64,000 nt of DNA from a virus. The notes under the pieces were generated by a model that did not search any database, had not been told where the DNA came from, and was given only the letters and a program-made list of their open reading frames with translations. Both the position numbers and the translations under genes were made by a program. Where the stretch lies: the IMG/VR virus record IMGVR_UViG_3300017605_000706, positions 33,433 to 97,432 of that record, one strand, 5' to 3'. This document shows, piece after piece, positions 19,900-63,826 of this stretch; position 1 is the stretch's first letter; the number at the start of each line of letters is the position of its first letter.

Positions 19900-20087
19900 G
19901 CCTATTCAAGCCCGATTGGGAACGCACACTCAAGATTCTGTACGCTGTGGGTGAGACGCTCGCTACGGGGAGCGTTCCCACGAAGGGCCTTTCTGATGCC
20001 GACCAACGTACAGTCAAGCTGACCGCAGCTGCGTTCGAGCACGCGATTCGTGGTGTGGTTAGCGTCGTGAAGCGTTACCGCGAGTAG
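19896..20087 (+). CDS. hypothetical protein
   Basis: ATGA overlap with upstream gene. Confidence 0.5.
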   Translation: MSLFKPDWERTLKILYAVGETLATGSVPTKGLSDADQRTVKLTAAAFEHAIRGVVSVVKRYRE

Positions 20088-20572
20088 CTAGGCTCGAGGA
20101 TCGTTCCTGTGGGGAACGTCAGCGTCGCAGTAGCCCCCGCTGTGACGTATTGGTCAAACGGCGCCCAGTCCAGCGCGTTGTAACCCATGATTACGTGGGA
20201 TGCGATTTTGACCTCGTGTTCGAACGTGAACGCGCGCGTTGCTGCGTCTCGAGCGACGTGGTGATGAATTCTGTGAATCTCCCACGGCAGTCCATCGATA
20301 GCTACGCAGCTCTCGAGGAGCCGTTCGCCCCGGAAGGTTCTGTGTTCGAATTCGAACCAGTAGGCGTTGATGCGCTGCCGTACGTGTTCGGCGATCTTCT
20401 CGGGATCAGGCTTGCCCTTGGTCGATAGAATCTGGCGTCGGTGCAGGCTGAGGGGATCGCTCTTTCCGTGAAGTTCCCGCGTGAATAGCTCGACGACGCC
20501 GCGCGCTTCGAGCCTCACCTCGAAGCCTCGATACCATACGATCTGGCGCCCGACGGTGATTATGTCAGCCAT
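20075..20572 (-). CDS. PWEIH-motif family member 1 (with W.PF..FPTG extension)
   Basis: WYRG; IDGLPWEIHRIHHHVARDAATRAF; LDWAPF...LTFPTG. Confidence 0.75.
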   Translation of the reverse strand: MADIITVGRQIVWYRGFEVRLEARGVVELFTRELHGKSDPLSLHRRQILSTKGKPDPEKIAEHVRQRINAYWFEFEHRTFRGERLLESCVAIDGLPWEIHRIHHHVARDAATRAFTFEHEVKIASHVIMGYNALDWAPFDQYVTAGATATLTFPTGTILEPSYSR

Positions 20573-21066
20573 GCTTTGATCTCATACTTCAAGTGCTCGC
20601 CTGTCGGAAATCGTAAGATAGCCTGCTTGGGGAACTGGACATAGCCTAGCGTCGTCCTTGGCAGCTTCTTCTTCGCTGAACCAGAACACTCGGTGACTGA
20701 TCTGAATGGCGGCCAATCGAGTACGCCGCTGTCTAGATCTACGGTGATCTCGACGCTCTTTAGATAGCTGCAAAGAGCAGACGCGTAAGCTATCTCGTCT
20801 TCGATCGCGTGGATCTCCCAAGGCACGTAGTCGATCGCGTGATAGTACTCAAGGTCTCTGAACCTGACTACTCGGTTTGACTCGAAAAAATACCTTCCGG
20901 GCGGCTTCTTCCGTGGCCGAACCAAGACGCGTGCGTCCCGCGTTTCTACACCGCGTATCCAGCTGAGGCCTACAGGATCTTGCGAAGCGCTTCGCTGCCA
21001 GCGGTACATGCCAGGGCCGCCAACGCTAAGATATCTGCCCCCAGTCCGTGAAAGATGCACCGTCAT
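20560..21066 (-). CDS. PWEIH-motif family member 2 (with extension)
   Basis: WIRG; IDYVPWEIHAIEDEIAYASALCSY; LDWPPF...LRFPTG. Confidence 0.75.
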   Translation of the reverse strand: MTVHLSRTGGRYLSVGGPGMYRWQRSASQDPVGLSWIRGVETRDARVLVRPRKKPPGRYFFESNRVVRFRDLEYYHAIDYVPWEIHAIEDEIAYASALCSYLKSVEITVDLDSGVLDWPPFRSVTECSGSAKKKLPRTTLGYVQFPKQAILRFPTGEHLKYEIKAWLT

Positions 21067-21512
21067 AGCTTGGCTTTGGGACGCGTGATCTCACCTGTAG
21101 GGAATACTAGCTTCACTGAAGCGCCGTTGAACGGAGGCCAATGTAGCGTCTCGTGGAGAGTCACCTCGGCGCTCTGTAGATAGGCCTTTGTCGCAGCAAG
21201 GCGCGCCGTGGTGTTCGTGATCCGATGGATCTCCCACGGAATGTAGTCTACGGCTGTCATCGCGCTCATCGCGCCGTCTCGTAGAAGATGCGTTGTCTTG
21301 CCTCGGATCTGAAGCTCGATATCGCCTTTGAGGCGGGCCTTGTGCAAGGCGATGAAACACAAGTTGCCGTGCGATCGGACGTGGAACCGCAGCTCGCGTT
21401 GGTCTGCCAGGCTGTAATGGAGAACGCGAATCTCAAATCCGCGATGCCATGCTAGGTCTCGCTTCTCGTTCCAGTAGATGTCAGACGACGTCGACGGGGT
21501 CGTTGTCGGCAT
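21063..21512 (-). CDS. PWEIH-motif family member 3 (with extension; start uncertain)
   Basis: WHRG; VDYIPWEIHRITNTTARLAATKAY; LHWPPF...LVFPTG. Confidence 0.75.
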   Translation of the reverse strand: MPTTTPSTSSDIYWNEKRDLAWHRGFEIRVLHYSLADQRELRFHVRSHGNLCFIALHKARLKGDIELQIRGKTTHLLRDGAMSAMTAVDYIPWEIHRITNTTARLAATKAYLQSAEVTLHETLHWPPFNGASVKLVFPTGEITRPKAKL

Positions 21513-22248
21513 GGAGTACAACGTCTTCATTGAACCACGAAACCGCGACATCGATCGGCGTCAGCTCAAGGGACGCCCGAATCGTCGATGGGTCGTGCGC
21601 GTCCTTGATGCCTTTCTTGATGTCCTTGACAGCCGCTTTCACGCAGTCGACGGCGTTGCGTAGGATGGTTCCCGGGACGCCGAGCGCTAGCTTGTCGAGG
21701 TTGCGTGACCGGATCTGGATCGTCTTGACCAGATTCAGATCGAGGGCGAGAAGCGCATCCTTGTAGTCAGCCAGGTGACTCGTGATCGTGTCAGCGATAG
21801 CCTTCGCAGCTGCAGGACCGTCCTGGCCGTCTCCGCTCGAGAGGAGCGCAGTCATCATGGCAATACGAATCCTGTGACGAGAGCCGACTGTACGCGCCTC
21901 TTCGTTCAGAGCATCGGCCTCTTCCTTGAGAGGGCCGATCTCGGCACGGAGCTTAGCCAGCTGCTCATCAGTCGCGACGAAGCCGAAGCTGACGAGAGTG
22001 GCGTGGCTGCGGAACATGTAGTCGATCTTGTTGCGCAGCTTAGCCATCTTCGCAACCACAGGCTCGTGGTCAACCTTCTTGACGACGATCGACTCAGTCC
22101 GCGTTCCAGCCGTGCCTTCAGCGGTTGTGCTAATTGGCTGCCGCTCGTACTGAACGCCGCCACCGGACTGCGTCGCGTTCAAAAGGATCCACTTTACAGC
22201 GAGGGTGACGGTCTTGTTATCTGCGCTCGTGATACTAATCGTGCTCAT
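21481..22248 (-). CDS. coiled-coil protein in the AAA+/VWA operon
   Basis: 255 aa, helical, directly downstream of the VWA gene. Confidence 0.7.
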   Translation of the reverse strand: MSTISITSADNKTVTLAVKWILLNATQSGGGVQYERQPISTTAEGTAGTRTESIVVKKVDHEPVVAKMAKLRNKIDYMFRSHATLVSFGFVATDEQLAKLRAEIGPLKEEADALNEEARTVGSRHRIRIAMMTALLSSGDGQDGPAAAKAIADTITSHLADYKDALLALDLNLVKTIQIRSRNLDKLALGVPGTILRNAVDCVKAAVKDIKKGIKDAHDPSTIRASLELTPIDVAVSWFNEDVVLHADNDPVDVV

Positions 22249-22260
22249 GGTTCGCTTCTT

Positions 22261-22286
22261 TGACAGGTTTCAGGGTAATAAATTCA
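22261..22286 (-). promoter_or_regulatory. TGAAT-N17-GTCA promoter-like motif
   Basis: 12 nt upstream of ATG 22248. Confidence 0.55.
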
Positions 22287-22299
22287 CAAGTTCATGGGA

Positions 22300-23595
22300 T
22301 CAGATCTCAGGATCCACGAGAACCTTCTTGAAATTCTCTGGCGCGCTGTCCAGGCTGCCGTAGCCAACGAGCGCAGCAACCGCCATCGCGACGTTTTTGG
22401 GCCGCGCGGGCCACTGCCCAAAGCAACCGCCATCGGTTAGGTGCACCAGCGCATCAAACTTGTCGCGTAGCTCGCTCACGGCTTGGTAGGCCGGATCGAA
22501 GATCGTTCCTCCGCGACCCTTCATGCACTTCCAAACGGCGGGCAGCGACGACGATGGCTGCAGCCAGCCCTTCCACTGCACCTCCGCGTCGTGGACTACC
22601 AAGTACAGTCGAATAGCGGGATTGGACGACGCGGCGACGACTTCGCTGACACAGCGGGCAACGGCTTTGTCGGACATGGAGCCAGACGTATCGACGATGA
22701 TGCAGATATTCTTGCGCGCTGAGATGTAGCCTGGCATCAGAAAGCTAGAGCCGTAGTACCGCCGGTTACGGCGCTGCCACGACTGGTCATCGCGCCCTGG
22801 CCACGCGAGTACCTGGCTAATCGTGTGCCGGACGAGGCGCGCCCAAGAGATTCTCGCCTTGGGCGGTTCGATGATGCGCGCCAGCGCCTGACCTGCCTGT
22901 GTCCCTGCGCCGAGGGACCTCGCCATCTCGCCCATGGCTCGCCAGATAAGCTCGGGGTTCCGCTTGGCGGTATCCGGATCGAGATCCTCGCCTTCACCTT
23001 CGTTGTTGGGCAGATCCGTGTCCACGCCGCAGCCCTGGCCCGCCTGCGGGCGCTTGTTGCCAACGGATTTGCCCTTACCAGAGCCGGACCCTCCTGCGCT
23101 TACCACTGCAACGGGCGTCTCCGGCTCGACGTCGTATAGGCGCTCTGCCTCCCACAACTTCTGCTCGTCCGTGAGAGGAAATAGCGGCTTGACTTTCTCG
23201 GGAATCGCCAGAACGTCAGCGTGCCGATCCTGCGAGATCTCCAGTAGAACTTGATTGATGGCGCGGTCTGCGGCTCTGTTCCAACGCGTAGATTCACGGT
23301 GCTGCTGGCGCTCCAGCGTTGACGTGATCAGGTGCAGCGACTCATGCGCCATCACGAACGCCAGCTCAGGCATCGTGAGCATCTGGACAAACTTCGGGTT
23401 GACGAAACAGACGCCGTACCGATTGATCGCGGCGGTTTCGACTTTCTCCGTGATTCGAATGCGGAGCGCGCTTGCGATGATGGCGAACATGGGAAGCTGG
23501 TAGCCTAGAACCACCAGCGCTTGACGGACCTGCGCGATCTCAAGAGACTTCGCGTTGGGCCACAGCTTACGCAGCTTTTCTTCGTTCAGCGCCAT
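22300..23595 (-). CDS. metallopeptidase-VWA protein (DUF2201-like), MoxR partner
   Basis: VETAA, AHESLH (HExxH), WNRAAD.AIN; VWA MIDAS DTSGS, GRGGT.F, LTDG. Confidence 0.88.
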   Translation of the reverse strand: MALNEEKLRKLWPNAKSLEIAQVRQALVVLGYQLPMFAIIASALRIRITEKVETAAINRYGVCFVNPKFVQMLTMPELAFVMAHESLHLITSTLERQQHRESTRWNRAADRAINQVLLEISQDRHADVLAIPEKVKPLFPLTDEQKLWEAERLYDVEPETPVAVVSAGGSGSGKGKSVGNKRPQAGQGCGVDTDLPNNEGEGEDLDPDTAKRNPELIWRAMGEMARSLGAGTQAGQALARIIEPPKARISWARLVRHTISQVLAWPGRDDQSWQRRNRRYYGSSFLMPGYISARKNICIIVDTSGSMSDKAVARCVSEVVAASSNPAIRLYLVVHDAEVQWKGWLQPSSSLPAVWKCMKGRGGTIFDPAYQAVSELRDKFDALVHLTDGGCFGQWPARPKNVAMAVAALVGYGSLDSAPENFKKVLVDPEI

Positions 23596-23627
23596 GTTCG
23601 TTTAGACTTTCTGTGAGGGCAGTCAGA

Positions 23628-24746
23628 TCAGAAGATAGCGCGATTGTACGCGACGAGTCGACCCAGAGCAGCTGCGCCGGCAGGAGCCCACTTCGGGTTC
23701 TTGGTCACCTGCTTGGGAACAGACTGAACGATCATAGCAGCAGTAGCGCGCTTGATCTCCGCGGACGGCAAGCGATCGATCCAGACGAAGGCTGCCCAGT
23801 AATCCTTCTCAGCGGCGCGGCGCGCGACCGTGATCGCCGCCAGCTCGTACTTGCGCTCCGAGGGCACCGGCGTCTTCTCGGGATCGTTGGCGATCTGGTC
23901 GGGCGTGGGCAGGTGCTTGCGCAGCTCGCGTTGGGCCAAGAACTTGAGCGCGGGGCCGGTACCGACAACGCCTGCCAGGATCGCAGCGCCTACCATGTCG
24001 CCCTGGCCCGTGGCGTAGTCGCGCGCGAGCGCCGAGTACGCGCGAAGCCCAAGCTCCCACGCGCGGGGGCTTCCCCACGGCTGCCCGTCGGCGATCGACG
24101 ACTCGGGCGGCGCGAACTCGATCAGATCTCCCAGGTGCTTGGCGGCAAGCGAGAAGTCCTCGGCTTCGTTCTTGTACGCAGTCGTAGCGTCGTCGTCTGC
24201 GAGAAGATTGGATAGGTTGGGCACGACAGGCGTGCCTGCGAAGAAGTTGGCGATCTCATCGAGCTGAGGCTGGACCTTGACCTGGACCATGCGGTTGACC
24301 ATCGCTGCAGAGAGCGTGATGCCGCCCGGGGCCTGATCCGGGTGGTTGCCTGCCATGAGGATGCGCGACTTCGGGTGCAGCTGGCGACCGCCTGCGTTAC
24401 GCTCGAGAGCGAGGCGCAGCATGGGCGCTTCGACAGAGCGCGGGATCGCCGTGATCTCGTCGAGGAACAGGACTACAGGCTCGTCACACGCCTGCTCGAT
24501 CTCGGGAAAGAGCGCGCGCTGGACGTGGCCCTCGTCGACGAATGGCAGGCCCGCGAAATCGGTCGCCTCCATGTTGGACGCGATCAGCGTGACGCATGGC
24601 ATGTTGAGTTGCTTGCTGACAGCGCGGGCGATCGCCGTCTTTCCGACGCCTGGCGAGCCGAGCATGAGGCAGGCGACATTCGCGCGAGCGCACGCGGCGG
24701 CGATCTCAGCGGTCTGAGCGAGATTCGAATCGGGGAGCTTGGCCAT
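23628..24746 (-). CDS. MoxR-type AAA+ ATPase
   Basis: Walker A GSPGVGKT, DFAGLP, Walker B LFLDEI, AGN, NR Arg finger, SPRAWE. Confidence 0.9.
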   Translation of the reverse strand: MAKLPDSNLAQTAEIAAACARANVACLMLGSPGVGKTAIARAVSKQLNMPCVTLIASNMEATDFAGLPFVDEGHVQRALFPEIEQACDEPVVLFLDEITAIPRSVEAPMLRLALERNAGGRQLHPKSRILMAGNHPDQAPGGITLSAAMVNRMVQVKVQPQLDEIANFFAGTPVVPNLSNLLADDDATTAYKNEAEDFSLAAKHLGDLIEFAPPESSIADGQPWGSPRAWELGLRAYSALARDYATGQGDMVGAAILAGVVGTGPALKFLAQRELRKHLPTPDQIANDPEKTPVPSERKYELAAITVARRAAEKDYWAAFVWIDRLPSAEIKRATAAMIVQSVPKQVTKNPKWAPAGAAALGRLVAYNRAIF

Positions 24747-24784
24747 GGGATTTACTCAAATTCCTTTCAGGGTTACAGAAGCAC

Positions 24785-25245: not shown

Positions 25246-25264
25246 TGTCTTTTTCTCCTCTGTT

Positions 25265-25660: not shown

Positions 25661-25668
25661 GTCACCTG

Positions 25669-26453: not shown

Positions 26454-26864
26454 ATGAACGGCAACATCACGGTCGGCGAGACGAACTACTCCACGGGCCA
26501 GCGCGCGGTGACTCTGGTCAATCCAATCGCGCGGGCGTTCGTTGACAACAAGCGTTACGTCCTGTGGTTCGGCGCCTACGGGGAGACGCGCCTCATGGTG
26601 TGGGCGCGTTCGCTCGAGTCGGCGCTCGATGAGTGCGTCGACTGGATCGCCGACAACGCGCCGGGTCTACTGGCCGATGACGGTGTGCATGAGCAGTACA
26701 AGCGCCTCGTGGCTGAGGGCGTGGACGAGGAGAAAGCTCAGGAGGAGGCGACTGTCGACACCACGTGCGCGGGCAACAACGGCCACTACCTCAACTCGTG
26801 GGAGTGGGGCATCGTTGCGGAGAACCCGACGCGGGCCCAGGTTCTCGAAATCTTGGGCCGTTGA
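26454..26864 (+). CDS. hypothetical early/accessory protein
   Basis: First gene of rightward block; promoter motif 8 nt upstream. Confidence 0.7.
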   Translation: MNGNITVGETNYSTGQRAVTLVNPIARAFVDNKRYVLWFGAYGETRLMVWARSLESALDECVDWIADNAPGLLADDGVHEQYKRLVAEGVDEEKAQEEATVDTTCAGNNGHYLNSWEWGIVAENPTRAQVLEILGR

Positions 26865-26888
26865 ATTTTAACTGAACCACCGGAGTCT
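26862..26888 (+). promoter_or_regulatory. TGAAT-N18-GTCT promoter-like motif
   Basis: TGA doubles as upstream stop; 7 nt before ATG 26896. Confidence 0.65.
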
Positions 26889-26895
26889 CAAAGCC

Positions 26896-27393
26896 ATGAC
26901 GAACGCGAACCAAATGTTCTGGCTGTCCACGCGCCCCTACACCTTGGTGGATGCGATCAACCGAGCGGCTGCGGCGACTGGCTCGGTCCGCTATGCGCAA
27001 GCGGCGGCCGGTGCCAACTACAACGGGCATTCGGTGAGCGTGGCCTGGAACGAGTATCGCAAGTACTGGGTGACCGAGTACTACTGGGGCGAGCGCGTGG
27101 TGCTGTACCGGGGGCGCTCACTCGAGCAGGCCCTGCAGGCTGCCAAGCAAGAATACGATCGTGGCGCGCTCGGTGCCCGCTGCACCTTTACTGCGCGAGA
27201 CGAGAATGAGGCTGCGGCCGCGCTCGCGGCAGGCTGGTCGCCAACCTCACGAGAGGCGATTAACGCGCACTACCGCACGTTCTCTGACGATCGGTTCGGT
27301 GAGGTCGGCCATGCGCTCCGAGACAGGACCGACCACCTACTACTGCAAGCAGCTACCGTCGATGAGTATCGGGCACTTTGTCGCTCACGTTGA
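26896..27393 (+). CDS. hypothetical early/accessory protein
   Basis: Preceded by repeated GGAGTCTCAAAGCCATGAC. Confidence 0.7.
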   Translation: MTNANQMFWLSTRPYTLVDAINRAAAATGSVRYAQAAAGANYNGHSVSVAWNEYRKYWVTEYYWGERVVLYRGRSLEQALQAAKQEYDRGALGARCTFTARDENEAAAALAAGWSPTSREAINAHYRTFSDDRFGEVGHALRDRTDHLLLQAATVDEYRALCRSR

Positions 27394-27417
27394 ATTTCAT
27401 CTAGGCAAACGGAGTCT
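27391..27417 (+). promoter_or_regulatory. TGAAT-N18-GTCT promoter-like motif
   Basis: TGA doubles as upstream stop; shares CGGAGTCTCAAAGCCATGAC with the 26862 copy. Confidence 0.65.
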
Positions 27418-27424
27418 CAAAGCC

Positions 27425-27649
27425 ATGACCAAGAAGCAGTTTGCGGCCTTCTGTCGCAGCGACGCAAACTGCGTCACCGCCGTGATCCAGGGTGACGGAT
27501 ATCCCGCTGCGGTACGGCTAGACAGCGACCGCCCCAGCATGCAGCCGGTAAGCGCGTTCGTGGCCATGCGCTACATCGATCGGTGCTGGTCTGAGCGCGT
27601 CGGCGGCTTGCTCGGTTATCGCGAGAATCGGTGGCGGGCCGTTAAATAA
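27425..27649 (+). CDS. hypothetical early/accessory protein
   Basis: ATG 27425 (MTKKQFAA), same upstream repeat. Confidence 0.65.
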   Translation: MTKKQFAAFCRSDANCVTAVIQGDGYPAAVRLDSDRPSMQPVSAFVAMRYIDRCWSERVGGLLGYRENRWRAVK

Positions 27650-29284: not shown

Positions 29285-30003
29285 AATTGCCATGTCAAAG
29301 ATCAAGCTTGTCCCGCCTACGAACACTCACAGCATGTTCACGATCATCACGTACGACGCCGTTGGCGTGACTCACACAGTTCTTCATGTCGCGCCCTGGA
29401 AGTTGACGGCTGTAGGCGCGCAAGGCGAAGTGGTCACGCTGCGCGACGTGGGAGGCCCCCTTGCGACGATCCCATGTACTGACAGCGAAGAGGCCCAGAA
29501 CCTCTCACGGGACATCGCAGACCTCATGGAAGAGACTGAGCGCTAGCCATGCCCAAGACCACCCCTACGTATCGAGTCACTGTTTCAGTGTGCGTGCCGG
29601 TCTCCCTCACGCTGACGATTCAGCGTGATGAGCACGATCCCGATATTGCCCAGATTATCGCCGTTGACGGTCCTATGTACGCTCCGTCTCTGACAACTGT
29701 GCGTGAGTGCCTCGACGAAGAGACGCTCACGTATATCGACAAGCAGCTCGCTGCGCTGGCGCTTGAGGACGCGCGCTAGCGTCATGCCCCGCGCAGAGCT
29801 TACCCCAGCGCAGCAGGCACTGTATGATTCTATCCAGAGTAGCGGTGAATCAATCATCCCCAATCGCGGGCAGACTCGAGAGTCGTCACGCGCGCGGTCC
29901 GCGTGGATTCGGACGGCGAAGAGCCTTCGCAAGAAGAATCTGATCGCGCTGCAGCAAGTTGGTGTTGATACCTGGAAAGCCTCTAGGCTATGAAGCAAAC
30001 TGG

Positions 30004-30429
30004 ATGATCTACGCGCTAAGATCGGGGTCGGCGCGCCCTCCAGCGCGTGTAACACGTTGGCCAGGGATCGCGTTTCCTATCCCATTCCAAGAATGGCGAG
30101 GCCGCATATACCGCGGCCTCTTTTTCGGTGTGCACGGAGTGAAGGAAGGCTCACCTATTTGGTCCGGCGTGGTGCGCGCGCGGACCTGCGACTACGTTGA
30201 CTACAAGTCGACTATGATCGCCTCTAACGCAAACTCGCTGCGTCACTTCATCGCGACCGGAGAGCTTCCTCCGCGCGTCGAGGACGCGTTTGGGTGCTGG
30301 CTGCACGAGCGGTTAGCTCAAGGTACACGCAGCCTTGATATGATTCCTCTCGAGATTCACGCTATCGCTGACCCTGCTGCGTATCAAGCTGCGATCAGAG
30401 CTTACCAGAGCGCGTCAGCGCCCTTCTGA
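30004..30429 (+). CDS. PWEIH-motif family member 4
   Basis: WRG/YRG; LDMIPLEIHAIADPAAYQAAIRAY. Confidence 0.7.
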   Translation: MIYALRSGSARPPARVTRWPGIAFPIPFQEWRGRIYRGLFFGVHGVKEGSPIWSGVVRARTCDYVDYKSTMIASNANSLRHFIATGELPPRVEDAFGCWLHERLAQGTRSLDMIPLEIHAIADPAAYQAAIRAYQSASAPF

Positions 30430-30627: not shown

Positions 30628-31041
30628 ATGAAACTGCACTCGTTGCTCATAGATCGAAGCGTTCACGACAACTACCTCTGCGTGACTACGCCGTTGGCGC
30701 TCAACGCTACACGCATCCAAGACGATGGACTTGCGTGGGTGTTTAGGGGGCTCTGGTGCGGCATGATGATACGCAAGAACGCTCTTTGGATCTGCACTCC
30801 GAATCTTGAACGGTGGTTTAGCGGAGAGAGCGCGTGGGTGCTTCACGCTTCATCTTCAATCCGCGACGCGCTGCCCGGCGACGTGCCTAAAATGTTCCCT
30901 CGTGTCGTGGTCACAGAAGCGTTGCAGCACGTCGACGCCACAACTGACGGCGTTGACGGTATCCCATTCGCCATCCACAAAATTCAGGACCGCAACGCGC
31001 GCAGGGTAGCAATGCGCGCGTTCCAAGAGTCACGCCCGTGA
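30628..31041 (+). CDS. PWEIH-motif family member 5
   Basis: GLAWVFRG; VDGIPFAIHKIQDRNARRVAMRAF. Confidence 0.72.
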   Translation: MKLHSLLIDRSVHDNYLCVTTPLALNATRIQDDGLAWVFRGLWCGMMIRKNALWICTPNLERWFSGESAWVLHASSSIRDALPGDVPKMFPRVVVTEALQHVDATTDGVDGIPFAIHKIQDRNARRVAMRAFQESRP

Positions 31042-31514
31042 CGATGCTCCCAAGGCTGTACTACGTACGAGGCGGAGGATCCAAGGCGCCTTTACTGGAT
31101 CTGCAGAAGACGCCTAACCCAAAGATGTGGGATCGCCCTCTCGAGCATATCAAGAGATCCGGCGTTGCGTGGGCGTACCGAGGCGTTCACGTAGGCGTAG
31201 TTCGAACAGGTGCCGAGACTATCAAACACCTACGAGGGACGTGGCAAATGCAGTCTCGATGGGTTTGGGCGTTCTGGATCAGCCACACGTTTGAAGTCGT
31301 CCGGGACATACACGATACGCAATCGTTACTGAGCGACATCTATCCGTCGACGTCGGCCGTGATCGACCGCGACCTTCAGCGCTACTTGGATAGATTCATG
31401 GCTGACCGTCCTGAGCTGAAGTCTGTTGACGTCACACCGTTGTACATTCATGCCATCGAAGACCCGACCGCCCGACAAGCTGCCACCCAAGCCTACCTGG
31501 AGTCCATCATATGA
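31038..31514 (+). CDS. PWEIH-motif family member 6
   Basis: GVAWAYRG; VDVTPLYIHAIEDPTARQAATQAY. Confidence 0.72.
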   Translation: MTMLPRLYYVRGGGSKAPLLDLQKTPNPKMWDRPLEHIKRSGVAWAYRGVHVGVVRTGAETIKHLRGTWQMQSRWVWAFWISHTFEVVRDIHDTQSLLSDIYPSTSAVIDRDLQRYLDRFMADRPELKSVDVTPLYIHAIEDPTARQAATQAYLESII

Positions 31515-31849
31515 ACGAAAAGACGGAAAAGTTTGTTGCGTACTTGCAGACAGCCCTGACGAACGCGCAAGGTAGAATCAGCGAGTTCAAGGCGCTTCTC
31601 GAGAAGGATCATCACGGCGCTGCACAGAGATCCGGCGCACTGATTGACGCAGCTGCGACAGTCGATATCTACGAAGACGTGCTCAAGGCGCTGACTTCGC
31701 CAGACTCCAAAGCTACGTTTGAGTCGATACGAGAGTACGCGACAGAGCGCGTGGTCCTGAGCGCTCGTAACTGGCCTTCGTCGCCCTATGAGAGAAAGAT
31801 CGCTGAGACTTGGGCATTCCTAGTCGACACCATGAAACTGCGTTTCTAG
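31511..31849 (+). CDS. hypothetical helical protein
   Basis: ATGA overlap; GGAG upstream. Confidence 0.6.
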   Translation: MNEKTEKFVAYLQTALTNAQGRISEFKALLEKDHHGAAQRSGALIDAAATVDIYEDVLKALTSPDSKATFESIREYATERVVLSARNWPSSPYERKIAETWAFLVDTMKLRF

Positions 31850-39170: not shown

Positions 39171-39181
39171 AGGGCTCAACC

Positions 39182-51362: not shown

Positions 51363-51370
51363 CGCAGCGC

Positions 51371-51397
51371 AGACGAAGCAGGGCGCGGTGGTATTCA
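51371..51397 (-). promoter_or_regulatory. TGAAT-N18-GTCT promoter-like motif
   Basis: 8 nt before GTG 51362. Confidence 0.55.
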
Positions 51398-52381
51398 CCT
51401 GCCTCGTCTGCGCTTGGCGTTCTTCGGCTCACGAACGTGAGCGCGTACCCAGTTACCGGGGTTCATGAAGTCCAAACACTGGCCGGTGTCCGTGATGATC
51501 CACTGCGGATGACCCACGCGATCTGCCAGACCAAGATTTTCCAGGTGCACATCGCAGATGTACATTTCTTCGTTCATCAGATAGTACAACGCGTACTTGG
51601 CGAGGCCTAGTTTGGGCTCAGACGTCGCGATCTCGACGCTGCGTCGGCCAAACTCGACTCTCATCGCCAGATTCATATCAACGTCATATGCACGGTGGTC
51701 GTTCAAGCGGTGCAAGAACGGCTCAAGCGAACCGCGATCGGAGAACGGTTTGGTCATGTCAAGGCGATCAACGGCCTGACGCGCGAAAGGCCGCGCAGCG
51801 CTAACCGCATTCCAGAACGCCACTCTATGCCCAGGCTTGATCGCCGTCAGATAATTCCACACGTACGTCCACGCGCTTTTGATGTCGATGAGACGAAGCG
51901 CGGCTGTAGCCGTTTCGTTGTCCAGCGTTTTCCAGTCATCGTAAAGCCCGCCTGGACGCTGCACTTCCTCGCGCCAGACCGCGTAGACGGGCTGCCTCTG
52001 GTACGTGATGTGTGACGGGAACGGTAAGTAGAACAGAAACTTGACGACGCCCTCAGGAGGGCCTGCCTTGAAGCGATCTTTGTCGGTGTAGACTTCTTCG
52101 ATGTAGACGATCTCGCTCGGGTCTGCCGTGATCTTGAATACGACTCCGGGAACGCTCGTCGGAAGCACGCAGCCAAAGAGGCCGCACCCGTAATTCTCAA
52201 AATGCCGAGTGCGCCCGCGCGGATTCGGCTTCTCTACCGGAAGATACTTCTCCTCAACCAGATCGTACAGCTCCGGGAAGCCCTGGTTGATGATCCGCTC
52301 AACGGCACTGAACGCGATGCCCAGATCGCCGAGGTCACCAAGCTGACCCATGCCGAGAGGCAGAAAATCGGCGATGTCCAT
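51395..52381 (-). CDS. protein kinase-like fold protein (copy 2)
   Basis: YGCGLFGCV, VFKIT.D..E, DVHLEN, TDTG; N-terminal LGMGQLGDLGDLG, basic tail. Confidence 0.75.
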   Translation of the reverse strand: MDIADFLPLGMGQLGDLGDLGIAFSAVERIINQGFPELYDLVEEKYLPVEKPNPRGRTRHFENYGCGLFGCVLPTSVPGVVFKITADPSEIVYIEEVYTDKDRFKAGPPEGVVKFLFYLPFPSHITYQRQPVYAVWREEVQRPGGLYDDWKTLDNETATAALRLIDIKSAWTYVWNYLTAIKPGHRVAFWNAVSAARPFARQAVDRLDMTKPFSDRGSLEPFLHRLNDHRAYDVDMNLAMRVEFGRRSVEIATSEPKLGLAKYALYYLMNEEMYICDVHLENLGLADRVGHPQWIITDTGQCLDFMNPGNWVRAHVREPKNAKRRRGR

Positions 52382-52421: not shown

Positions 52422-52748
52422 ATGTCCGAGAATACGATGACCGAGCCCCTGAACCTAAAAGACGCCACTGAAAAGGCGTTGGACTACGCCGCTACCCACT
52501 GCCGGACCTGCGCTTCAGGTACGTTACGTTGTCAACGCCACGCCGACGAAGACGGCTTCCTGGCTGACGCGCTCGAGAAGTTCGGCGACGTCTGTCAACA
52601 GCAAGTCTACGAGACGACCACGGACTCCAACCAGGACGCCATCACGGACTACCGTGAGGAGCTTCGATGCGAGCTTGAGGATAAGTTCGGTAAGCTCCCC
52701 GAAGAACTACGCAGGCAAGTATTGAAAATCCTAAAGGAAACGCTTTGA
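52422..52748 (+). CDS. hypothetical protein
   Basis: CRTC...C..H; coupled to integrase. Confidence 0.55.
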   Translation: MSENTMTEPLNLKDATEKALDYAATHCRTCASGTLRCQRHADEDGFLADALEKFGDVCQQQVYETTTDSNQDAITDYREELRCELEDKFGKLPEELRRQVLKILKETL

Positions 52749-53665
52749 AAGGACTTCAAAGAACGCAGTACACGACGTGCCCGCTCATGCTTGTGATCGA
52801 GCAGAGCGAGAAGCTGTCGGACTCGAGCAAGCGCGTCTACCGCAACGCGGTCGGCGAGTGGCTCGACTTTGCTGGGGAGCACCCTTCGGGTTGGAGCTTA
52901 TCACAAGCGCAAACTTGGTACAAGACGCTATGTACCAGAATCGTAGTCAAATCAGCAAACAGTCGGGTCGCGGCCTTGAAGTACGCCTCTCGACGCTGGG
53001 CCGCGCTTTCTCAAAGACCTGATCTTGATTTCGCTGCCGCGCTCGAGATCCGGCGCGACAACTCCATCAAGGCGATCAGGTCACTGAGCTACGATGAGGC
53101 CGCGCGTCTATTAGACGCGTGTAGCGGGCGTCGCCCCGTCGACCTACGTGATTACGCCGCTGTAACCCTGGGCCTACGCACGGGGATGCGCCGCATGTCG
53201 CTAGCAGGTTCACGTTTGGACAAGATGGAGTCCGCGCCCGAAGGCGTCATGATCGAGGTTCCGATCAAGGGCGGTACTCTGCATAAAGTTCCGCTCGACG
53301 AGACGACGCTTCACGGAATCGCTCCCTGGCTTCAGTATCTGAAAATCAACAAAATCGTGGCAGGCCCCGTATTCCGGGCGTGTGACCAGGCGACGATCCC
53401 CACCGAAGGCCTCGGGCTCGAGGGTCTTTGGAAAACGCTCAAGCGGCGTGCGAAGAAGGCCGAGATCCCCAACTTCACGCCGCACGTCATGCGCCACACG
53501 TTCGTGACGTGGTGCCGCGAAGCCGGAGTGCCGGACTACCAGATCGCTGCCGTGACCGGCCACAAGGGCGGTGCAGGGCTCGAACGGATCCTTGGTGTTT
53601 ACACCGACAAGAACGTCGGTTGGCACGCCGTCGCAGCGATTCCTACAAGCCTATGGCACCGATGA
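52745..53665 (+). CDS. tyrosine recombinase/integrase (XerC/D-like)
   Basis: RD.A...L...TGMR, KGG, PHVMRH, GH, catalytic Y; N-terminal SAM-like domain. Confidence 0.9.
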   Translation: MKGLQRTQYTTCPLMLVIEQSEKLSDSSKRVYRNAVGEWLDFAGEHPSGWSLSQAQTWYKTLCTRIVVKSANSRVAALKYASRRWAALSQRPDLDFAAALEIRRDNSIKAIRSLSYDEAARLLDACSGRRPVDLRDYAAVTLGLRTGMRRMSLAGSRLDKMESAPEGVMIEVPIKGGTLHKVPLDETTLHGIAPWLQYLKINKIVAGPVFRACDQATIPTEGLGLEGLWKTLKRRAKKAEIPNFTPHVMRHTFVTWCREAGVPDYQIAAVTGHKGGAGLERILGVYTDKNVGWHAVAAIPTSLWHR

Positions 53666-57371: not shown

Positions 57372-59606
57372 TCATCCAACAAGTTCCACCGTGACGACGA
57401 TATTCGTTTGGGGCGTAGTGGGGGCCACAGTTTTCGTGACGCGGAGCGCAATGCGGTCGCCGGCAGCAACCGTGATCTGGCTGGTGTCGGGGCCTGCGCT
57501 GGTGGCCGTGTTGCCCATGGCCTGGTCGAGCTGGGTCACGGCGCCATTCAGGAGGAGCGTGTACTGATTCGTCGAGCCGCCGGTGCCCGCCGTGGCGTGG
57601 ATGCGCATGTTGCGGAGCGTGCCCGCGCGAGGCATCAACATCTCGATCTGGACGGTGGTCTCGGTCGCCAGACCGCCACCCGGCGCGAAGAATCGAGCGG
57701 CAGTCGCCGTCGTACTCGCTAGCGTGCCGAACGTGATCTCCGACGGTCCGACGATGGCCCAGCCAGTGTTGCCGGTGCCTGAGTCTTTCGTCCAGATTAC
57801 GGCACCAGCCACGCCCTGGCTGTTCGTGGCCAACGAGCCCGGCGGCGCCGTGATGCGCGACTCGGGGCTGCCGACGACGTTGATCGTGGCCATCTGCGCG
57901 CCGGCAGGGTTGCTGTTGTTGGTGACGCCAACGTTCGCTGGCGTCGGCGGCACTACAAGGCCTGTGGTCGCGTCGACCGTGTTGTTGCCGGTGCAGGCGC
58001 GATAGCCCGCGAACGTACCCGCGCCGACGTTCGTATAGCGGATGCCTTGTAGGCTGTTCCGCGTGTAGTTGTCATTCACGGTGACGTTGTTGACGTTGAA
58101 ACCGTTCTCGGTGTCGAGGTTGATACCGTCGGTGATGCGCGTGACCGTAGCGATCACTAGATTTCCTGTGATCGTCCAGTCATCTCCGGTGACACCAATG
58201 GCACGCGCCTGAACTGCCTGCCACGTGCCCACGGCAGCCGGGTTGACGTTCAGGAATACGAGGTTGCCGCTTACCGCGAGCTGCTTGCAGTCCTCCATGC
58301 GCAAAATGATGACGCCGTTGACGTTGGCGACGCCGCGCAGGATGTTGTTCGAGACGATGATGTCGAAAATCGACCCGGGACTGTCGATGAAGTACCAGAT
58401 CGCTGCGCGCTCGTTTCCGCCGCCGATAACGTTCTCTGCATTGATGATGTTGGCGTCAGCAATGACATTTTGTGGGTTACGGAGCGAGATGCCGGCTTCG
58501 CCAAGGATCGTCTCCTGAATGTCCATCACGTTGCCGATGATGTCGGTGTTCGAGACAAGGAGCCCCTGGATCGTGCCGGCGGCAAGGAAGACGTTGAAGC
58601 TGCAAGTGTGGCGCTTCGAGTACTTGTCGATGCCGCCGTCGCGGACGCCTGTCAACGTGATCGCGATGTTCGAGAAGGCCGGGTTGAGGTCGAAGATGTT
58701 GCCGAGGATGTTGAACGCCGTTGGCCCCTCGCCGAGGTGAGGCTCGAAATCGATGCACTGCGCGGCCGTACTGTTCATCCAGTTGTCGATGATGTCGATC
58801 TGCGCGACGTCGCGCTGCGTGCTCACGCTCGATCGCGAGAAGGTTCCCTGGTTGAACGTGTTGAACAGCATGCGGGCGTTAACGACGGTGAAGCCCGCAC
58901 CGAAGGCGCCGTTGCCGCCGAGCAGACGAACACTATCGCCGCGGATGGGATCGAATATGACGTCTTGGATTTCGAGGTCCGTCGGGTTGACGTTCACGAC
59001 CGGCGGGTTGCTCTGCGAGAATTGCACCCAGTGCGTCTGATCGACGAAGTTGGTAAGCGTGTCCGCGTTCATGCGCATGTTGTAGAAACGCACGCGCTGC
59101 GTGGAGCTGGTGATACGAAACACCTCGACGATGCGCCCGAGCGCGTCACCAGTAAGCTTGATCCAACTGTTGTAGCCGTCGCCGAAAAACGTGATGTTGC
59201 TCTTAGCGCTGAGGATGATGATGCCTTCAACAACGGTGTTGTAGACGGCATAGCCGAGCACCGCCGGTGGGATGTAGATCATCCCGCCACCGGCCGCAGC
59301 GGCCGCATTGACAGCATTTTGGATGGCGGCGTTGCAGCTCGTGACCCCGTCCCCTACGGCGCCGAAGTCGCGAACGATATTGAATACGCGGAGATTGACG
59401 AGGTTCTGCTCAGCCCAGCCGTGAGCATCGGCGTTGAGCTTGAAGTAGGTCTGGATCGGATCGCTCGGACCGATCGATCCGTCGCCGCGGACCCACACTG
59501 AGCCAAGCCCGCGCGCCGTTCCCGGGCCTGCGTCGGGGTCCGTGATCCGGTTCTGCCACGACGCAATCTGATCGCGAAATTCTTCGGTGGAGAACACCTT
59601 GGACAT
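57372..59606 (-). CDS. beta-helix spike/receptor-binding protein (pectate lyase-like), copy 1
   Basis: ATG 59606; VRDFGAVGDG.T....AIQ.A.......GG.IYIP; Asn ladders; GSPE..ITA.PGS...K.SG.GNTGW. Confidence 0.85.
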   Translation of the reverse strand: MSKVFSTEEFRDQIASWQNRITDPDAGPGTARGLGSVWVRGDGSIGPSDPIQTYFKLNADAHGWAEQNLVNLRVFNIVRDFGAVGDGVTSCNAAIQNAVNAAAAAGGGMIYIPPAVLGYAVYNTVVEGIIILSAKSNITFFGDGYNSWIKLTGDALGRIVEVFRITSSTQRVRFYNMRMNADTLTNFVDQTHWVQFSQSNPPVVNVNPTDLEIQDVIFDPIRGDSVRLLGGNGAFGAGFTVVNARMLFNTFNQGTFSRSSVSTQRDVAQIDIIDNWMNSTAAQCIDFEPHLGEGPTAFNILGNIFDLNPAFSNIAITLTGVRDGGIDKYSKRHTCSFNVFLAAGTIQGLLVSNTDIIGNVMDIQETILGEAGISLRNPQNVIADANIINAENVIGGGNERAAIWYFIDSPGSIFDIIVSNNILRGVANVNGVIILRMEDCKQLAVSGNLVFLNVNPAAVGTWQAVQARAIGVTGDDWTITGNLVIATVTRITDGINLDTENGFNVNNVTVNDNYTRNSLQGIRYTNVGAGTFAGYRACTGNNTVDATTGLVVPPTPANVGVTNNSNPAGAQMATINVVGSPESRITAPPGSLATNSQGVAGAVIWTKDSGTGNTGWAIVGPSEITFGTLASTTATAARFFAPGGGLATETTVQIEMLMPRAGTLRNMRIHATAGTGGSTNQYTLLLNGAVTQLDQAMGNTATSAGPDTSQITVAAGDRIALRVTKTVAPTTPQTNIVVTVELVG

Positions 59607-59610
59607 AGCG

Positions 59611-61740
59611 TTATACAAGCTCCAGGCTGGCGATAACGTTCGTCTGGCCAGCTGCGACGCCCGCGCTCTTGACGATGCTCACCGATACCAGCGAGCCCGC
59701 GGCGACGGTCGCCGTATGCGTGAGGTCCGACACCGCACCCGTCGCCGTGTTGCTCTGGGTGGTAGTGATGGCAGTATCAACGCCGCCGATTCGCACTGTG
59801 TACGTCACGGTCGCAGCGCCGGTGCCAGCGCCAGCGGTCTGGATCCGGAGGTTGCGGATCGTGCCAGCGCGCGTAATCGGCATCTGAATCTCGGCGGCCG
59901 GCGACGTTGCCTCGTACCCGGGCGCCATGAAGACAGCAGTGGCCGCCGTCGTCGTGTCACCGGTGCCAAAGACGAGCGCCGAGCCGCCCATGGCGACCCA
60001 CCCGAGGTTGCCGACACCAGCCTCCTTGTAGTAAACAGCCGTCGAGGGACCGCCGTCGCGTCGCAGGAACATCGAGCCGATGCGCGCAGTGACGACGCCT
60101 TCCGGCGTGCCATCACCCGTGAATAGCTGGGTGCCCGCGCCACCGCCCGACCCGGAATTGAAGCCGACGCGGGGGATGACGGTGACGCCGACGTTCGTGA
60201 AGTCCGTGGTCGCGCCGGCAAAGTTGTTGCCGCCGTACATGATCACGTTGTTGGTGAAGTTACCGCCACCGCCACCGATCTCGAACTGGACACCGTTGGT
60301 GACGTTGTTGCCCAGGTTGGAGACGATGCTGACGCCCAGGACGTTGGCGCCGTTGGCGAGTAGGCGCACCGCCGCCAAGCCGGTGCCGGCGGCTGCCGAC
60401 CACTGGTTGCCGGGGCCGATGAGGACGTCGTCCATTGCGACCGTGACGGCCTGGACGTCGCAGCCGATGATCGTGCCCGCACCCGCGTTCGTCCAGCGGC
60501 ACACGTTGCCGCCCAGCGACCACCGGACGGCGTCGACTACGGTCATGATCGGCGCTGACGCGACTTCCTGCAAAAGGATGTTGTTGCCGATGCGGAAGCG
60601 GCTCGGAGCGGCGCCGCCGGAGGACTCGACCTTGATGCACTCGCCGACGCTGCCACCCTCGCGGTCGACGATGTTTGCGACGAAGGTGCAGTCAGTGACG
60701 TTACCAAAGATACGAACCACGGCGTTCGCCGTTGCAAACGTTCCCGAGAAGATCGGGTTGCCGTACACCGACAGGAACCGGCACCCCGACATGGTCAGGT
60801 ACCCGCCGAGGAGAATGTTGTTGGTCAAGACCGAGTGCGACAAGAGACCCGTCGCGTCGCCTTCGAGCCGGATGGCGCGAGGTTCGGTTCCTGTGTGATT
60901 GATCTCGTTGTTCGAGATGTTGATGGCCTGGCTGTTCACGTTCGCCGTCGCGACGATGGCGATATCGGTCTCGCAGTTGGTGAAGTAGTTATCGATCACC
61001 CACAGCGACTTCATGCCCTGCTCGCCGCCGAAGCCGAAGCGCGAGCACCCGTCGAAGACGTTATCGCGGATCCATCCGCGGTTAGCCAGGTTGCCGACCG
61101 CGCCGACAACGTGCACGCCATCGCCGCTAGCAGCGGGCATCCCACCGAACCAGTTGGAGTCGATCCGGAAGTCGGTGATAGCGCCGGCCGTAGCATCGAC
61201 GAGCAGCAAGTGATTGCTGCGCGCCGCCGCCGGGTTGGTGAGGCCGCTACCGTCGAGCCTGATGTTCGTGATGCGGGTCGAGAGCGAACCCGCCACGAGG
61301 TTGATCATGGAGCCGGCTGCGCCGCCCGCGTTGCGTGTCCACTTCAACACCGATCCCGCGCCAGCGCCCCAGAGCTGGACCGCAGACGGGACGGTGATGC
61401 TCGTGGCGATCGCGAACGTGCCGCGCGGGATCCACACGACGCCACCGCCGAGCCCCGAGACTTCAGTAATAGCCGCCTGGATGGAGGCCGTCGCGTCCGT
61501 GACGCCGTCGGCGATGGCGCCGAAGTCGAGGATCGACCGCCAACCTAGGGACTGGGAAAGTTTCTCCCAATTCGTCGCCGCCGCGCCCGTCTTCTGGTAG
61601 AGACCTGGGCTACCCGCGGTCCTCGTGTAGAGGCTGCCAATGTTGCGGACGAGCCCAGGGCCTGTGGAAGGGTCGGCCGCGCCATCAAGAATGTTTACGA
61701 GATTCAGCCTGATCTCGTCTGCAGCAAATACTTTAGACAT
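59611..61740 (-). CDS. beta-helix spike/receptor-binding protein (pectate lyase-like), copy 2
   Basis: AGGAG upstream; ILDFGA.ADG.TD....IQ.A......GG.VWIP.G; GTPEGVVTA.IGS...K..G.GN.GW. Confidence 0.85.
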   Translation of the reverse strand: MSKVFAADEIRLNLVNILDGAADPSTGPGLVRNIGSLYTRTAGSPGLYQKTGAAATNWEKLSQSLGWRSILDFGAIADGVTDATASIQAAITEVSGLGGGVVWIPRGTFAIATSITVPSAVQLWGAGAGSVLKWTRNAGGAAGSMINLVAGSLSTRITNIRLDGSGLTNPAAARSNHLLLVDATAGAITDFRIDSNWFGGMPAASGDGVHVVGAVGNLANRGWIRDNVFDGCSRFGFGGEQGMKSLWVIDNYFTNCETDIAIVATANVNSQAINISNNEINHTGTEPRAIRLEGDATGLLSHSVLTNNILLGGYLTMSGCRFLSVYGNPIFSGTFATANAVVRIFGNVTDCTFVANIVDREGGSVGECIKVESSGGAAPSRFRIGNNILLQEVASAPIMTVVDAVRWSLGGNVCRWTNAGAGTIIGCDVQAVTVAMDDVLIGPGNQWSAAAGTGLAAVRLLANGANVLGVSIVSNLGNNVTNGVQFEIGGGGGNFTNNVIMYGGNNFAGATTDFTNVGVTVIPRVGFNSGSGGGAGTQLFTGDGTPEGVVTARIGSMFLRRDGGPSTAVYYKEAGVGNLGWVAMGGSALVFGTGDTTTAATAVFMAPGYEATSPAAEIQMPITRAGTIRNLRIQTAGAGTGAATVTYTVRIGGVDTAITTTQSNTATGAVSDLTHTATVAAGSLVSVSIVKSAGVAAGQTNVIASLELV

Positions 61741-61759
61741 TCTTTAAAACCCTTCTCCT

Positions 61760-62471: not shown

Positions 62472-62473
62472 CT

Positions 62474-62845
62474 CTAGTAGACCTCATAGAGGTCGCCGTG
62501 AAACCACTGGTTTAGCCGTTGAACTAGCCTATCCGTAGGCAACGCGCCCATCTGGCTCGTCCAGCCACGATAAGCGGCTTCACGCGGTATCTTATCGGAA
62601 ATACAATGTATTTCCCATGGGACGTCATCCCATGACGCTACGTCTGAGGTTCGCCCAATAAGCGCTACGACGCCGTCTACGAAATTGTAGACGGCGTCGT
62701 AACTGTGCACGTGTGATACGGTTACGGTCGGCGTGTTTTGCCGACCGTAGACGCGCAGATCGTTACCGTCCTGAACGGCTGCAAGTCCGCGATATACTAA
62801 AATAACACGGCCAGAGTAGTCTCCGCACCGAAAGCGCCAGATCAC
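62474..62845 (-). CDS. PWEIH-motif family member 23
   Basis: GTG 62845 (MIWRF); VYRG; WDDVPWEIHCISDKIPREAAY. Confidence 0.72.
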   Translation of the reverse strand: MIWRFRCGDYSGRVILVYRGLAAVQDGNDLRVYGRQNTPTVTVSHVHSYDAVYNFVDGVVALIGRTSDVASWDDVPWEIHCISDKIPREAAYRGWTSQMGALPTDRLVQRLNQWFHGDLYEVY

Positions 62846-62994
62846 GGCTTGGCCTTCTTGGGCCGCTTGAACTTGAGCAAGCGATCGCCTCTCTGTTTGT
62901 TCCAGAGGGCGATCGAGTGGAATCGAGTCGTAGCTTTGATCTCGCCTGAGGGGCTGAACACTACCCAAATGATTTCTGGGATGGGCTGATTCAC
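62842..62994 (-). CDS. 50-aa basic protein (below ORF-track cutoff)
   Basis: MNQPIPEIIWVV...KRPKKAKP; GTGA overlap with member 23. Confidence 0.45.
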   Translation of the reverse strand: MNQPIPEIIWVVFSPSGEIKATTRFHSIALWNKQRGDRLLKFKRPKKAKP

Positions 62995-63013
62995 AGCCGA
63001 GCACTCTAGGCGA

Positions 63014-63352
63014 TCAGTGTGACGGGACCACGATGAAGTGAAACTCGGAACCGATACTGCGGACTTCGCTGTCGCGAACTTTTCGTGGGTCCATAGCGCC
63101 TACGAGGTCGGCTCTAGTAAGCTGCACGTAGCCGAGGTTGTTCCAGTGAACAGCTAGCTTCGCCAAGCTCTTCATAGGAATGTCGAGCGCTTCGGCCAGG
63201 TCTGACAGGAAGACTTTGTACGGCCCGTAACTGATCTTGCGCGCCGCGAGTTGGCGCGCTGTCGCTAGCGCCTTGTTGGCCGCAGCTTTATGCGACGGGT
63301 TCTCCTGCATCTGTTCGAGAAGATCGAAATCGATCGGCTGATTGATCGCCAT
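63014..63352 (-). CDS. winged-helix-like protein
   Basis: KVFLS.L......L.RADLV.AMDP..V..SE......FHFI motif. Confidence 0.6.
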   Translation of the reverse strand: MAINQPIDFDLLEQMQENPSHKAAANKALATARQLAARKISYGPYKVFLSDLAEALDIPMKSLAKLAVHWNNLGYVQLTRADLVGAMDPRKVRDSEVRSIGSEFHFIVVPSH

Positions 63353-63370
63353 TTTTTATGACGCAGTATA

Positions 63371-63826
63371 CTACACGATCTCCTGAACAAGTACAGGACT
63401 GATCATAGCCAGCCTGAGCGCAAAGATCAGCCGCCTTTTCAGGCTGTCACTCGATACGGCGCCGTTCTCACCTGTGTAAGCGTGATAGGCCGCTTCTCTA
63501 GCGACGTCGTCGTCTATCGTATGAATTTCCCACGGGACGTCATCGAAAGGTTGATAGCGCCGGATCGATGGGTACTCCGTGAGGTCAAAGCGAGGCCATA
63601 TCGTATCCAGATGAGGTGGCTTGCCTGGACGGCCTACGTAATGGGCTCCCCAACTCAGTTGAAAACAGTCCGACTGGAAAGCCTGGAAAGCGCCGTAGGC
63701 GCGCTGCAGCGCGTACAGGCGCCATGAAGGGAGCCCGTGATCTTCGCGCTCGTGGTATGTTCTCAGGCAGAGTCCGCGACAGACGACGAAATAGCTGCTC
63801 AAGTCTGACGCGAAGATCCAGATCAC
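63371..63826 (-). CDS. PWEIH-motif family member 24
   Basis: GTG 63826 (MIWIF); CRG; FDDVPWEIHTIDDDVAREAAY. Confidence 0.72.
   Translation of the reverse strand: MIWIFASDLSSYFVVCRGLCLRTYHEREDHGLPSWRLYALQRAYGAFQAFQSDCFQLSWGAHYVGRPGKPPHLDTIWPRFDLTEYPSIRRYQPFDDVPWEIHTIDDDVAREAAYHAYTGENGAVSSDSLKRRLIFALRLAMISPVLVQEIV

Follow-up and report, generated by a model that had tools for sequence, protein, structure and literature searches.

A tandemly expanded, undescribed family of small phage proteins sharing a PWEIH block on an uncultivated viral contig

Why should a virus carry dozens of diverged copies of one small gene, when phage genomes are compact and gene families of such size are rare in phages? 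The question is raised by a 64,000-nucleotide stretch of DNA (the window; all coordinates below refer to it unless stated otherwise) that comprises bases 33433-97432 of the linear 97,432-bp virus record IMGVR_UViG_3300017605_000706 in IMG/VR. A preliminary description of the window noted 24 open reading frames (ORFs) sharing a short motif around the residues PWEIH, and proposed a library of adaptors in which different hypervariable domains plug into one common partner. We report here that the family is real and has the constant C-terminal module and much more diverged N-terminal part that had been described, and that it is an undescribed and strikingly expanded phage protein family, although nothing in the analysis shows a new mechanism.

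The extent of the family was determined with a hidden Markov model (HMM) of the motif, built from 11 exact PWEIH sites, the exact string being present in 11 ORFs. Among the six-frame ORFs of the window it recovers exactly the 24 originally listed, with E values from 3.5e-17 to 2.5e-4, and the next match is at E 3.2. Their low coordinates are as first given apart from the choice of start codon at three of them (29959 rather than 30004, 42229 rather than 42241, and 43402 rather than 43429). A second HMM made from all 24 members adds 13 more in the first 33 kb of the contig, and the family size of 24 is therefore right for the window but not for the 97,432-bp contig, which has 37. The 24 window genes cover 16.8% of the window, and all 37 copies together amount to about 16 kb, or about 16% of the 97-kb contig. 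The window members fall into six clusters on both strands (at least five had been counted), and there are six or more clusters in the contig as a whole. The family is indeed Trp-rich, with 3.7% Trp compared to 1.8% in other genes. No hydrophobic segment stands out in the proteins and their isoelectric points are mixed; by composition they are predicted to be soluble, and a reading as membrane or secreted proteins was rejected for want of any such segment.

The conserved block reads D-G-[IV]-P-W-E-I-H-x-I-x-D-x2-A-x3-A-x2-A-[YFW] and lies at the extreme C-terminus in 19 of the 24 window members, the same count as before; the other five (20075, 20560, 21063, 62474, and 63371) are extended beyond it, with two types of extension. 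Conservation over 185 family sequences is highest for the Ala of column 22 (183), Pro (182), Ile (178), His (175), and the first Asp (171), followed by the Ala at column 18 (164), the second Asp (157), Glu (156), and Trp (153). The upstream [WY]-R-G turn reported earlier is also confirmed, with its Arg and Gly kept at 90% or more. The conserved Pro is encoded by CCT, CCG, CCC, and CCA in 8, 13, 7, and 8 instances respectively, Ala uses all four of its codons, and the same codon is found at only 44% of identical residues other than Trp and Met. Because the conserved residues use mixed synonymous codons, selection acts on the protein and not on the DNA, as had been proposed; the DNA repeats of the array region are limited to the motif-coding stretches (61-85% identity), and a DNA-level repeat or recombination site was rejected on account of this codon diversity.

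Is the block a detachable box joined to different domains, or part of one fold? The proteins had been called barely alignable, which overstates their divergence, as 31 of the 37 have a significant alignment of at least 80 residues with another paralog, at 26-38% identity. Alignments of 39, 70, and 104 sequences each recover the N-terminal W..[YW]-R-G, a mid-protein Trp, and the C-terminal block, and the shortest members, of 96-107 residues, begin directly at M-x-Y-R-G. An HMM of the N-terminal part only, made from 135 outside sequences with the motif removed, scores above 11.7 bits with 15 of the contig's 37 N-terminal parts and with a single background ORF (of at least 80 residues). Every member consists of one small alpha/beta domain, about 96-107 residues at its shortest, in which the chain runs through a [YW]-R-G hairpin, a four- to five-stranded antiparallel sheet, a helix with the conserved Trp, the D-G-[IV]-P-W-E-I-H-x-I-x-D turn, and a C-terminal helix with the face A-x3-A-x2-A-[YFW]. 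The picture of different variable domains sharing a plug-in box thus gives way, on the N-terminal HMM, the full-length paralog alignments, and the compact structure model, to that of one homologous domain.

That model, an AlphaFold2 prediction of the member at 38373-38759, is compact, with a predicted local distance difference test score (pLDDT) of 82.5, a predicted TM-score (pTM) of 0.73, and a pLDDT of 91-95 in the motif region. It has a helix at residues 3-10, strands within 11-63, a helix at 70-87, a short helix at 103-106 corresponding to WEIH, and a final helix at 111-127. The conserved Asp, Ala, Arg/Tyr, Ala, Ala/Ser, and Tyr/Phe residues of the C-terminal helix fall on one face, with a conservation moment of 0.38 that none of 10,000 shuffles reached, and the opposite face is polar and variable. 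The conserved Ala/Tyr face is the only small or hydrophobic one on the helix, and with a model so compact and confident the simplest and most likely arrangement is that it packs in cis on the rest of the domain. A homodimer prediction scored 0.09 against a mark of 0.42, which gives no verdict and is evidence for neither side. A helix-turn-helix DNA binder was set aside by judgement, the first helix being too short and the last one acidic and Ala-rich.

The age of the family and the forces acting on it can be judged from its relatives. A profile search of 1.84 billion representatives found 216 clusters at E ≤0.001, of which 21 reach ≤1e-10. A set of 151 proteins, made up of 150 listed from this search and P0003, divides into 15 of the contig itself and 136 outside ones, and the motif is present in every one examined. 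The outside homologues are from soil and rhizosphere metagenomes, and those looked up are singletons or pairs with no protein name in Logan, JGI, NCBI, or SRC metagenome data, on contigs of 1-10 kb where this is recorded; on four JGI contigs two or three family members lie side by side. About 20 of the 37 paralogs have full-length orthologues outside, with 41-100% identity in the N-terminal part and a motif that is usually better kept (for example, 78% compared to 41%, and 83% compared to 43%). One contig, L019, is syntenic with bases 6270-7591 of the contig at about 90% protein identity, and the ratio of nonsynonymous to synonymous substitution rates (dN/dS) against it is 0.21-0.32 overall and 0.16-0.32 in the N-terminal parts. 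Because of these orthologues and ratios we regard the copies as old and individually maintained rather than hypervariable, as they had been termed, and the comparison shows, so far as sequence can, individual paralogs to be under purifying selection in related phages. The best paralog lies no more than two family positions away for 17 of the 37, and for this reason the sequences show the old family to have grown by tandem duplication.

Contigs of close relatives in rhizosphere and soil runs provide two further observations. A joint from 40970 to 41355 removes exactly the member at 40957-41367, with three bases shared at the joint, and at another (39172-39479) the non-family ORF 39182-39481 is replaced by eight letters. 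Since each joint is seen on a single low-depth contig, they only hint that whole cassettes may occasionally be gained or lost. In the sequencing runs listed, the contig accounts for small shares of rhizosphere, soil, and freshwater metagenomes, with no RNA run among them.

What, then, might the proteins do? We favor the reading that they are tandemly expanded, single-domain phage accessory proteins that probably bind different host or competitor components, with the PWEIH block as a scaffold and possibly a functional module, and the diverged sheet providing specificity; the functional part of this reading is drawn from the architecture. The block would be a constant C-terminal sub-structure of the fold, in which the conserved polar Asp, Glu, His, and Asp residues may make up, together with the YRG Arg, a functional patch common to the family, and each paralog would owe its particular target to the diverged Trp-rich sheet. 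The set as a whole would be non-structural accessory binders of host or competitor components, acting for example in host takeover or anti-defence.

Several observations weigh against this reading. Conservation of the 25-residue block exceeds what most folds need, and the N-terminal parts beside it are often below BLAST detection. The block is contiguous, has a mean pairwise identity of 45%, and includes several polar positions (D, E, H, and D), and for these reasons it may do more than hold the fold, leaving room for a shared ligand or partner. The preliminary description had itself raised the possibility that the motif is the buried core of one compact fold; such a compact fold is predicted, but packing of the motif in cis is inferred from helix periodicity and model confidence, and not from reading the coordinates. 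One fold for every subgroup is less secure: the model of the divergent PWEIA-type member at 43023-43436 has a pLDDT of only 40-55 in its N-terminal part, although strands, a long helix, a short helix, and the C-terminal helix still follow one another as in the first model. The dN/dS values come from three short gene pairs, which makes the selection data thin, and the sequence searches turned up neither a named homologue nor a fused domain.

In the originally proposed adaptor library, the constant C-terminal module would dock every paralog to one shared phage or host machine and the variable part would recruit targets. Among paralogs as well as among orthologues, the motif is much better kept than the remaining protein, as in the two pairs of values given above, conserved polar residues lie in the block, and three members are encoded directly downstream of MoxR-type AAA+ and VWA/DUF2201 genes on the same strand. 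The first Asp (Asp4) and His11 also tend to be present or absent together, with both in 169 sequences, neither in 6, and only 4 discordant, but this covariation stems from one subclade and so does not represent several independent events. Against the library, the helix has only one hydrophobic or small-residue face and is placed confidently inside the compact model, the N-terminal parts are homologous rather than unrelated domains, the motif is internal in five members, and no F-box or PRANC Pfam model is matched. We regard the adaptor library as possible but unlikely, and keep it at that level because the block is conserved beyond the usual need of a fold, its polar residues are kept, and Asp and His were lost together in one subclade. 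The more specific proposal that the PWEIH turn and helix are a docking handle coupling about 37 target-recognition domains to one machine (e.g. a protease, a chaperone like the neighboring MoxR-AAA+/VWA pair, or the capsid interior) seems to us doubtful; if true, bacterial viruses would have, on a new fold, their own equivalent of the adaptor libraries of F-box/PRANC type known from eukaryotic viruses.

A small enzyme, or a ligand- or metal-binding domain, in which the Arg of YRG with Asp, Glu, His, and Asp forms a site and the paralogs differ in substrate, would explain why a domain of about 100 residues keeps five charged ones and why Asp and His covary. However, Glu is replaced in 29 of the 185 sequences, and Trp/Glu or His is lost in whole subgroups that remain maintained. 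No similarity to an enzyme family or fold was found, and the ESM Atlas leads to T5orf172, a GIY-YIG-like domain, have feature scores of 0.87-0.88 with 131-139 shared features, below that resource's thresholds (0.9). We consider such a site improbable. Nor do we give much weight to oligomerisation, in which the Ala-x3-Ala-x2-Ala face would pair the C-terminal helices of two members into homo- or hetero-oligomers among the 37. A small-residue helix face is a common helix-helix packing motif, this one is kept in every paralog, and nothing directly opposes the idea, but the face can also pack in cis on the helix with the conserved Trp, and we judge pairing to be quite improbable. That the genes are selfish cassettes, spreading within and between phage genomes like free-standing homing-endonuclease genes, is very improbable: there are many copies on both strands, one relative lacks exactly one member, and the weak T5orf172 leads point the same way, but no nuclease family is matched in Pfam or PHROGs, no GIY-YIG chain or fold occurs among the structural matches and no GIY-YIG Pfam model is matched, the copies are old and diverged (26-38% identity) rather than recent spreads, and orthologues and synteny are kept.

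The individual members of the window differ considerably among themselves. Three lie on the minus strand at the end of a same-strand run (20075-24746) that comprises a MoxR-type AAA+ gene (23628-24746), a DUF2201 metallopeptidase/VWA gene (22300-23595), a 255-residue ORF with no assigned family, and the members themselves: 21063-21551 (162 residues, motif HMM E 3.7e-17, and 31% identical over 159 residues to 20075-20572), which is the last gene of the run after the AAA+ and DUF2201 genes, 20560-21066 (168 residues, E 1.1e-16), and 20075-20572 (165 residues, E 4e-16), whose orthologue P0008 is 63% identical. In the last of these the motif is internal and followed by an extension, LDWAPF...FPTG, and alignment gives the other two the same type; this LDW.PF...FPTG extension is also present in the outside homologues P0007, P0008, P0021, P0042, and P0047.

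On the plus strand, a series of members that depart from the PWEIH string begins at 29959-30429 (156 residues, IPLEIH, E 9.3e-10; orthologue P0037 93% identical) and continues with 30628-31041 (137 residues, IPFAIH, E 2.3e-7; P0027, 51%), 31038-31514 (158 residues, TPLYIH, E 2.3e-7; P0118, 98%), and 31810-32358 (182 residues, IPNVLH; P0092, 64%), the last of which has E 2.5e-4 with the motif HMM and 8.6e-13 with the 24-member HMM. Further along are 32333-32821 (162 residues, VPFKLH, E 2.1e-6), which is 33% identical over 117 residues to 33065-33493 (142 residues, VPMALH, E 5.5e-6), and then 35717-36043 (108 residues, EPFELH, E 2.5e-5) and 36040-36351 (103 residues, E 5.4e-16), which is near the minimal domain. 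The modelled member at 38373-38759 (128 residues, with homologues P0002 and P0003 at 47-49% identity) is followed by 38802-39170 (122 residues, VAREIH, E 1.5e-9; orthologue P0060 63% identical) and 39478-40023 (181 residues, APREIH, E 3.8e-10).

Next on the plus strand are 40957-41367 (136 residues, E 7.1e-16; orthologue P0029 95% identical), the gene absent from one close-relative contig, in run X2, and 41355-41717 (120 residues, E 3.5e-17; P0036, 56%). The PWEIA subgroup comprises 41760-42248 (162 residues, E 2.5e-8), which lacks both the Asp and His that covary, 42581-43030 (149 residues, E 4e-6), and the second modelled member, 43023-43436 (137 residues, E 1.1e-4), with a pLDDT of 62.9 overall and 92-98 in the C-terminal helices. 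Between the first two lies 42229-42588 (119 residues, E 2e-15; orthologue P0156 76% identical), and the plus-strand members end with 43402-43878 (158 residues, PWELA, E 8.1e-5), which is 26% identical over 158 residues to 43023-43436. Three members remain, all on the minus strand: 50952-51398 (148 residues, E 1.2e-16; P0016, 50%) stands alone, 62474-63004 (176 residues, E 8.1e-17; P0057, 50%) has the second type of C-terminal extension, and 63371-63910 (179 residues, E 4.1e-17; P0023, 56%) has an extension ending LVQEIV. Several family genes overlap the stop of the preceding gene, and few of the 24 in the window have a Shine-Dalgarno-like string in the 25 bases before the assumed start; either some starts are misplaced, or the host makes little use of Shine-Dalgarno sequences.

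The contig that carries the family is rated 87% complete by CheckV and has a GC content of 56-63%. Its replication and nucleotide genes include a family-A DNA polymerase (PolA), two large helicases, a Sak4-like annealing protein, an exonuclease, an RNA ligase, a Dam methylase, and a thymidylate kinase. Scans of the larger ORFs against PHROGs or Pfam recognised no capsid, portal, or terminase gene, and the contig may be without its structural arm despite the CheckV rating. The DNA polymerase is at most 25% identical to those of isolated phages by tblastn, a DNA polymerase scan of IMG/VR found no relatives, and window positions 20000-44000 have no megablast match in 50,697 phage records; judged by its genes, the contig is a deep uncultivated lineage and a virus of prokaryotes.

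Other features of the contig are of note. The two large helicases (phrog_62) are paralogs with 27% identity, at L009:12129-13739 (+) and L010:8868-10772 (-), the latter with family members on both flanks. A tyrosine integrase (52745-53665, plus strand; phrog_1, E 2.4e-21) hints at a temperate or integrative element. A sugar-nucleotide and glycosylation cluster (6747-18762) encodes a UDP-GlcNAc 2-epimerase, a two-domain GT2 protein, a UDP-glucose/GDP-mannose dehydrogenase, an NAD-epimerase, and another GT2 protein, and it also holds two tandem LamG proteins that are 68% identical to each other. Adjacent minus-strand genes at 57372-61740 encode proteins of 748 and 709 residues with a pectate-lyase fold and 27% mutual identity, which are likely tailspikes or depolymerases. 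A 45-nucleotide stretch is present in two copies (26859-26903 and 27388-27432) that are 82% identical and both end in GGAGTCTCAAAGCCATGAC; they resemble corresponding start and upstream regions of two adjacent small genes.

A contig that devotes about 16% of its length to 37 maintained copies of a single small domain suggests that selection has been strong and diversified, and its most plausible seat is the interface of phage and host. Its compactness makes the domain a candidate for structural work and for screens for anti-defence or host-takeover activity, and if docking or another function shared by all members is eventually traced to the constant module, phage effector repertoires would have a new modular principle.

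How does the family compare with those already known? Pfam searches with hmmscan, first with 10 members and later with 70 at a cutoff of E 1, gave no consistent match, the same members gave only scattered single matches in PHROGs (best E 0.0027), and a PDB sequence profile found nothing at E up to 10. Foldseek searches of PDB and BFVD found nothing at E ≤0.001, and VIA-align gave a best Z of 4.4 in a wide search and 4.1 in a second look. A literature search on 'PWEIH' and on paralogous tandem phage families turned up nothing relevant. Pattern scans of IMG/VR with D-x-x-P-W-E-I-H-x-I and PWE[IL]HxIx[DN] revealed no other carriers, and nine of 13 loci in a metagenome pattern scan were chance matches. 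A scan of 185,579 species genomes for the exact string DG[IV]PWEIH yielded four chance matches, none of which fits the motif HMM, and thus no true member; no fused longer forms were found, although this is weak evidence. As first suspected, the family matches no described one, and is so far confined to uncultivated viral or metagenomic sequence from soil and rhizosphere; since Pfam, PHROGs, and PDB offer no relative and the fold searches nothing convincing, it would merit a new entry among protein families.

The likeness to F-box and PRANC proteins that was suggested at the outset is limited to the string [ILV]-P-x-E-I, which opens a helical element near the C-terminus of many of the paralogs. 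There is no F-box, F-box-like, or PRANC Pfam match at E up to 1 in 80 members, and after the start of the motif the AlphaFold2 model has just the two helices at 103-106 and 111-127, a four-residue turn and one 17-residue helix rather than a three-helix box of 40-50 residues. The remainder of the phage protein is one conserved domain and, to our knowledge, bacteria have no SKP1.

A second comparison is with small alpha+beta binders. The top VIA-align rows are the MMO inhibitory subunit, the N-terminal domain of AcrIF24, type III secretion chaperone/YbjN-like proteins, toxin immunity proteins, and actin capping protein, and the likeness to the binders among them is a weak one, consisting of a helix, an antiparallel sheet, and a helix across it. 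These matches have Z of 2.8-4.4 over 59-83 aligned residues with root-mean-square deviations of 3.0-4.6; every Z is below 5, which is the level expected of unrelated small alpha+beta proteins, and only residues 1-92 are covered, leaving the PWEIH module (93-128) outside. Immunity proteins share with the phage family an organization of genes in arrays of diverged paralogs, but the SMI1_KNR4, SUKH, and Imm Pfam profiles match none of 70 members at E up to 1, and solved immunity proteins give weak rows only against the model (6pdk with Z 3.4 and 7zhm with Z 2.9).

A further parallel is with the multigene families of large DNA viruses, such as the African swine fever virus multigene families (ASFV MGF), the herpesvirus US22 family, and the poxvirus ankyrin/PRANC proteins, and it is drawn from genome architecture. 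Here the virus is one of prokaryotes, the fold is another and unmatched one, and no sequence relation was found. Nonetheless, dozens of diverged paralogs in tandem arrays are confined to one lineage, each protein has a constant and a variable part, and there are hints of copy-number change between close relatives, so that the PWEIH family has the many tandem, lineage-restricted paralogs of a viral multigene family, a similarity of architecture and not of homology.

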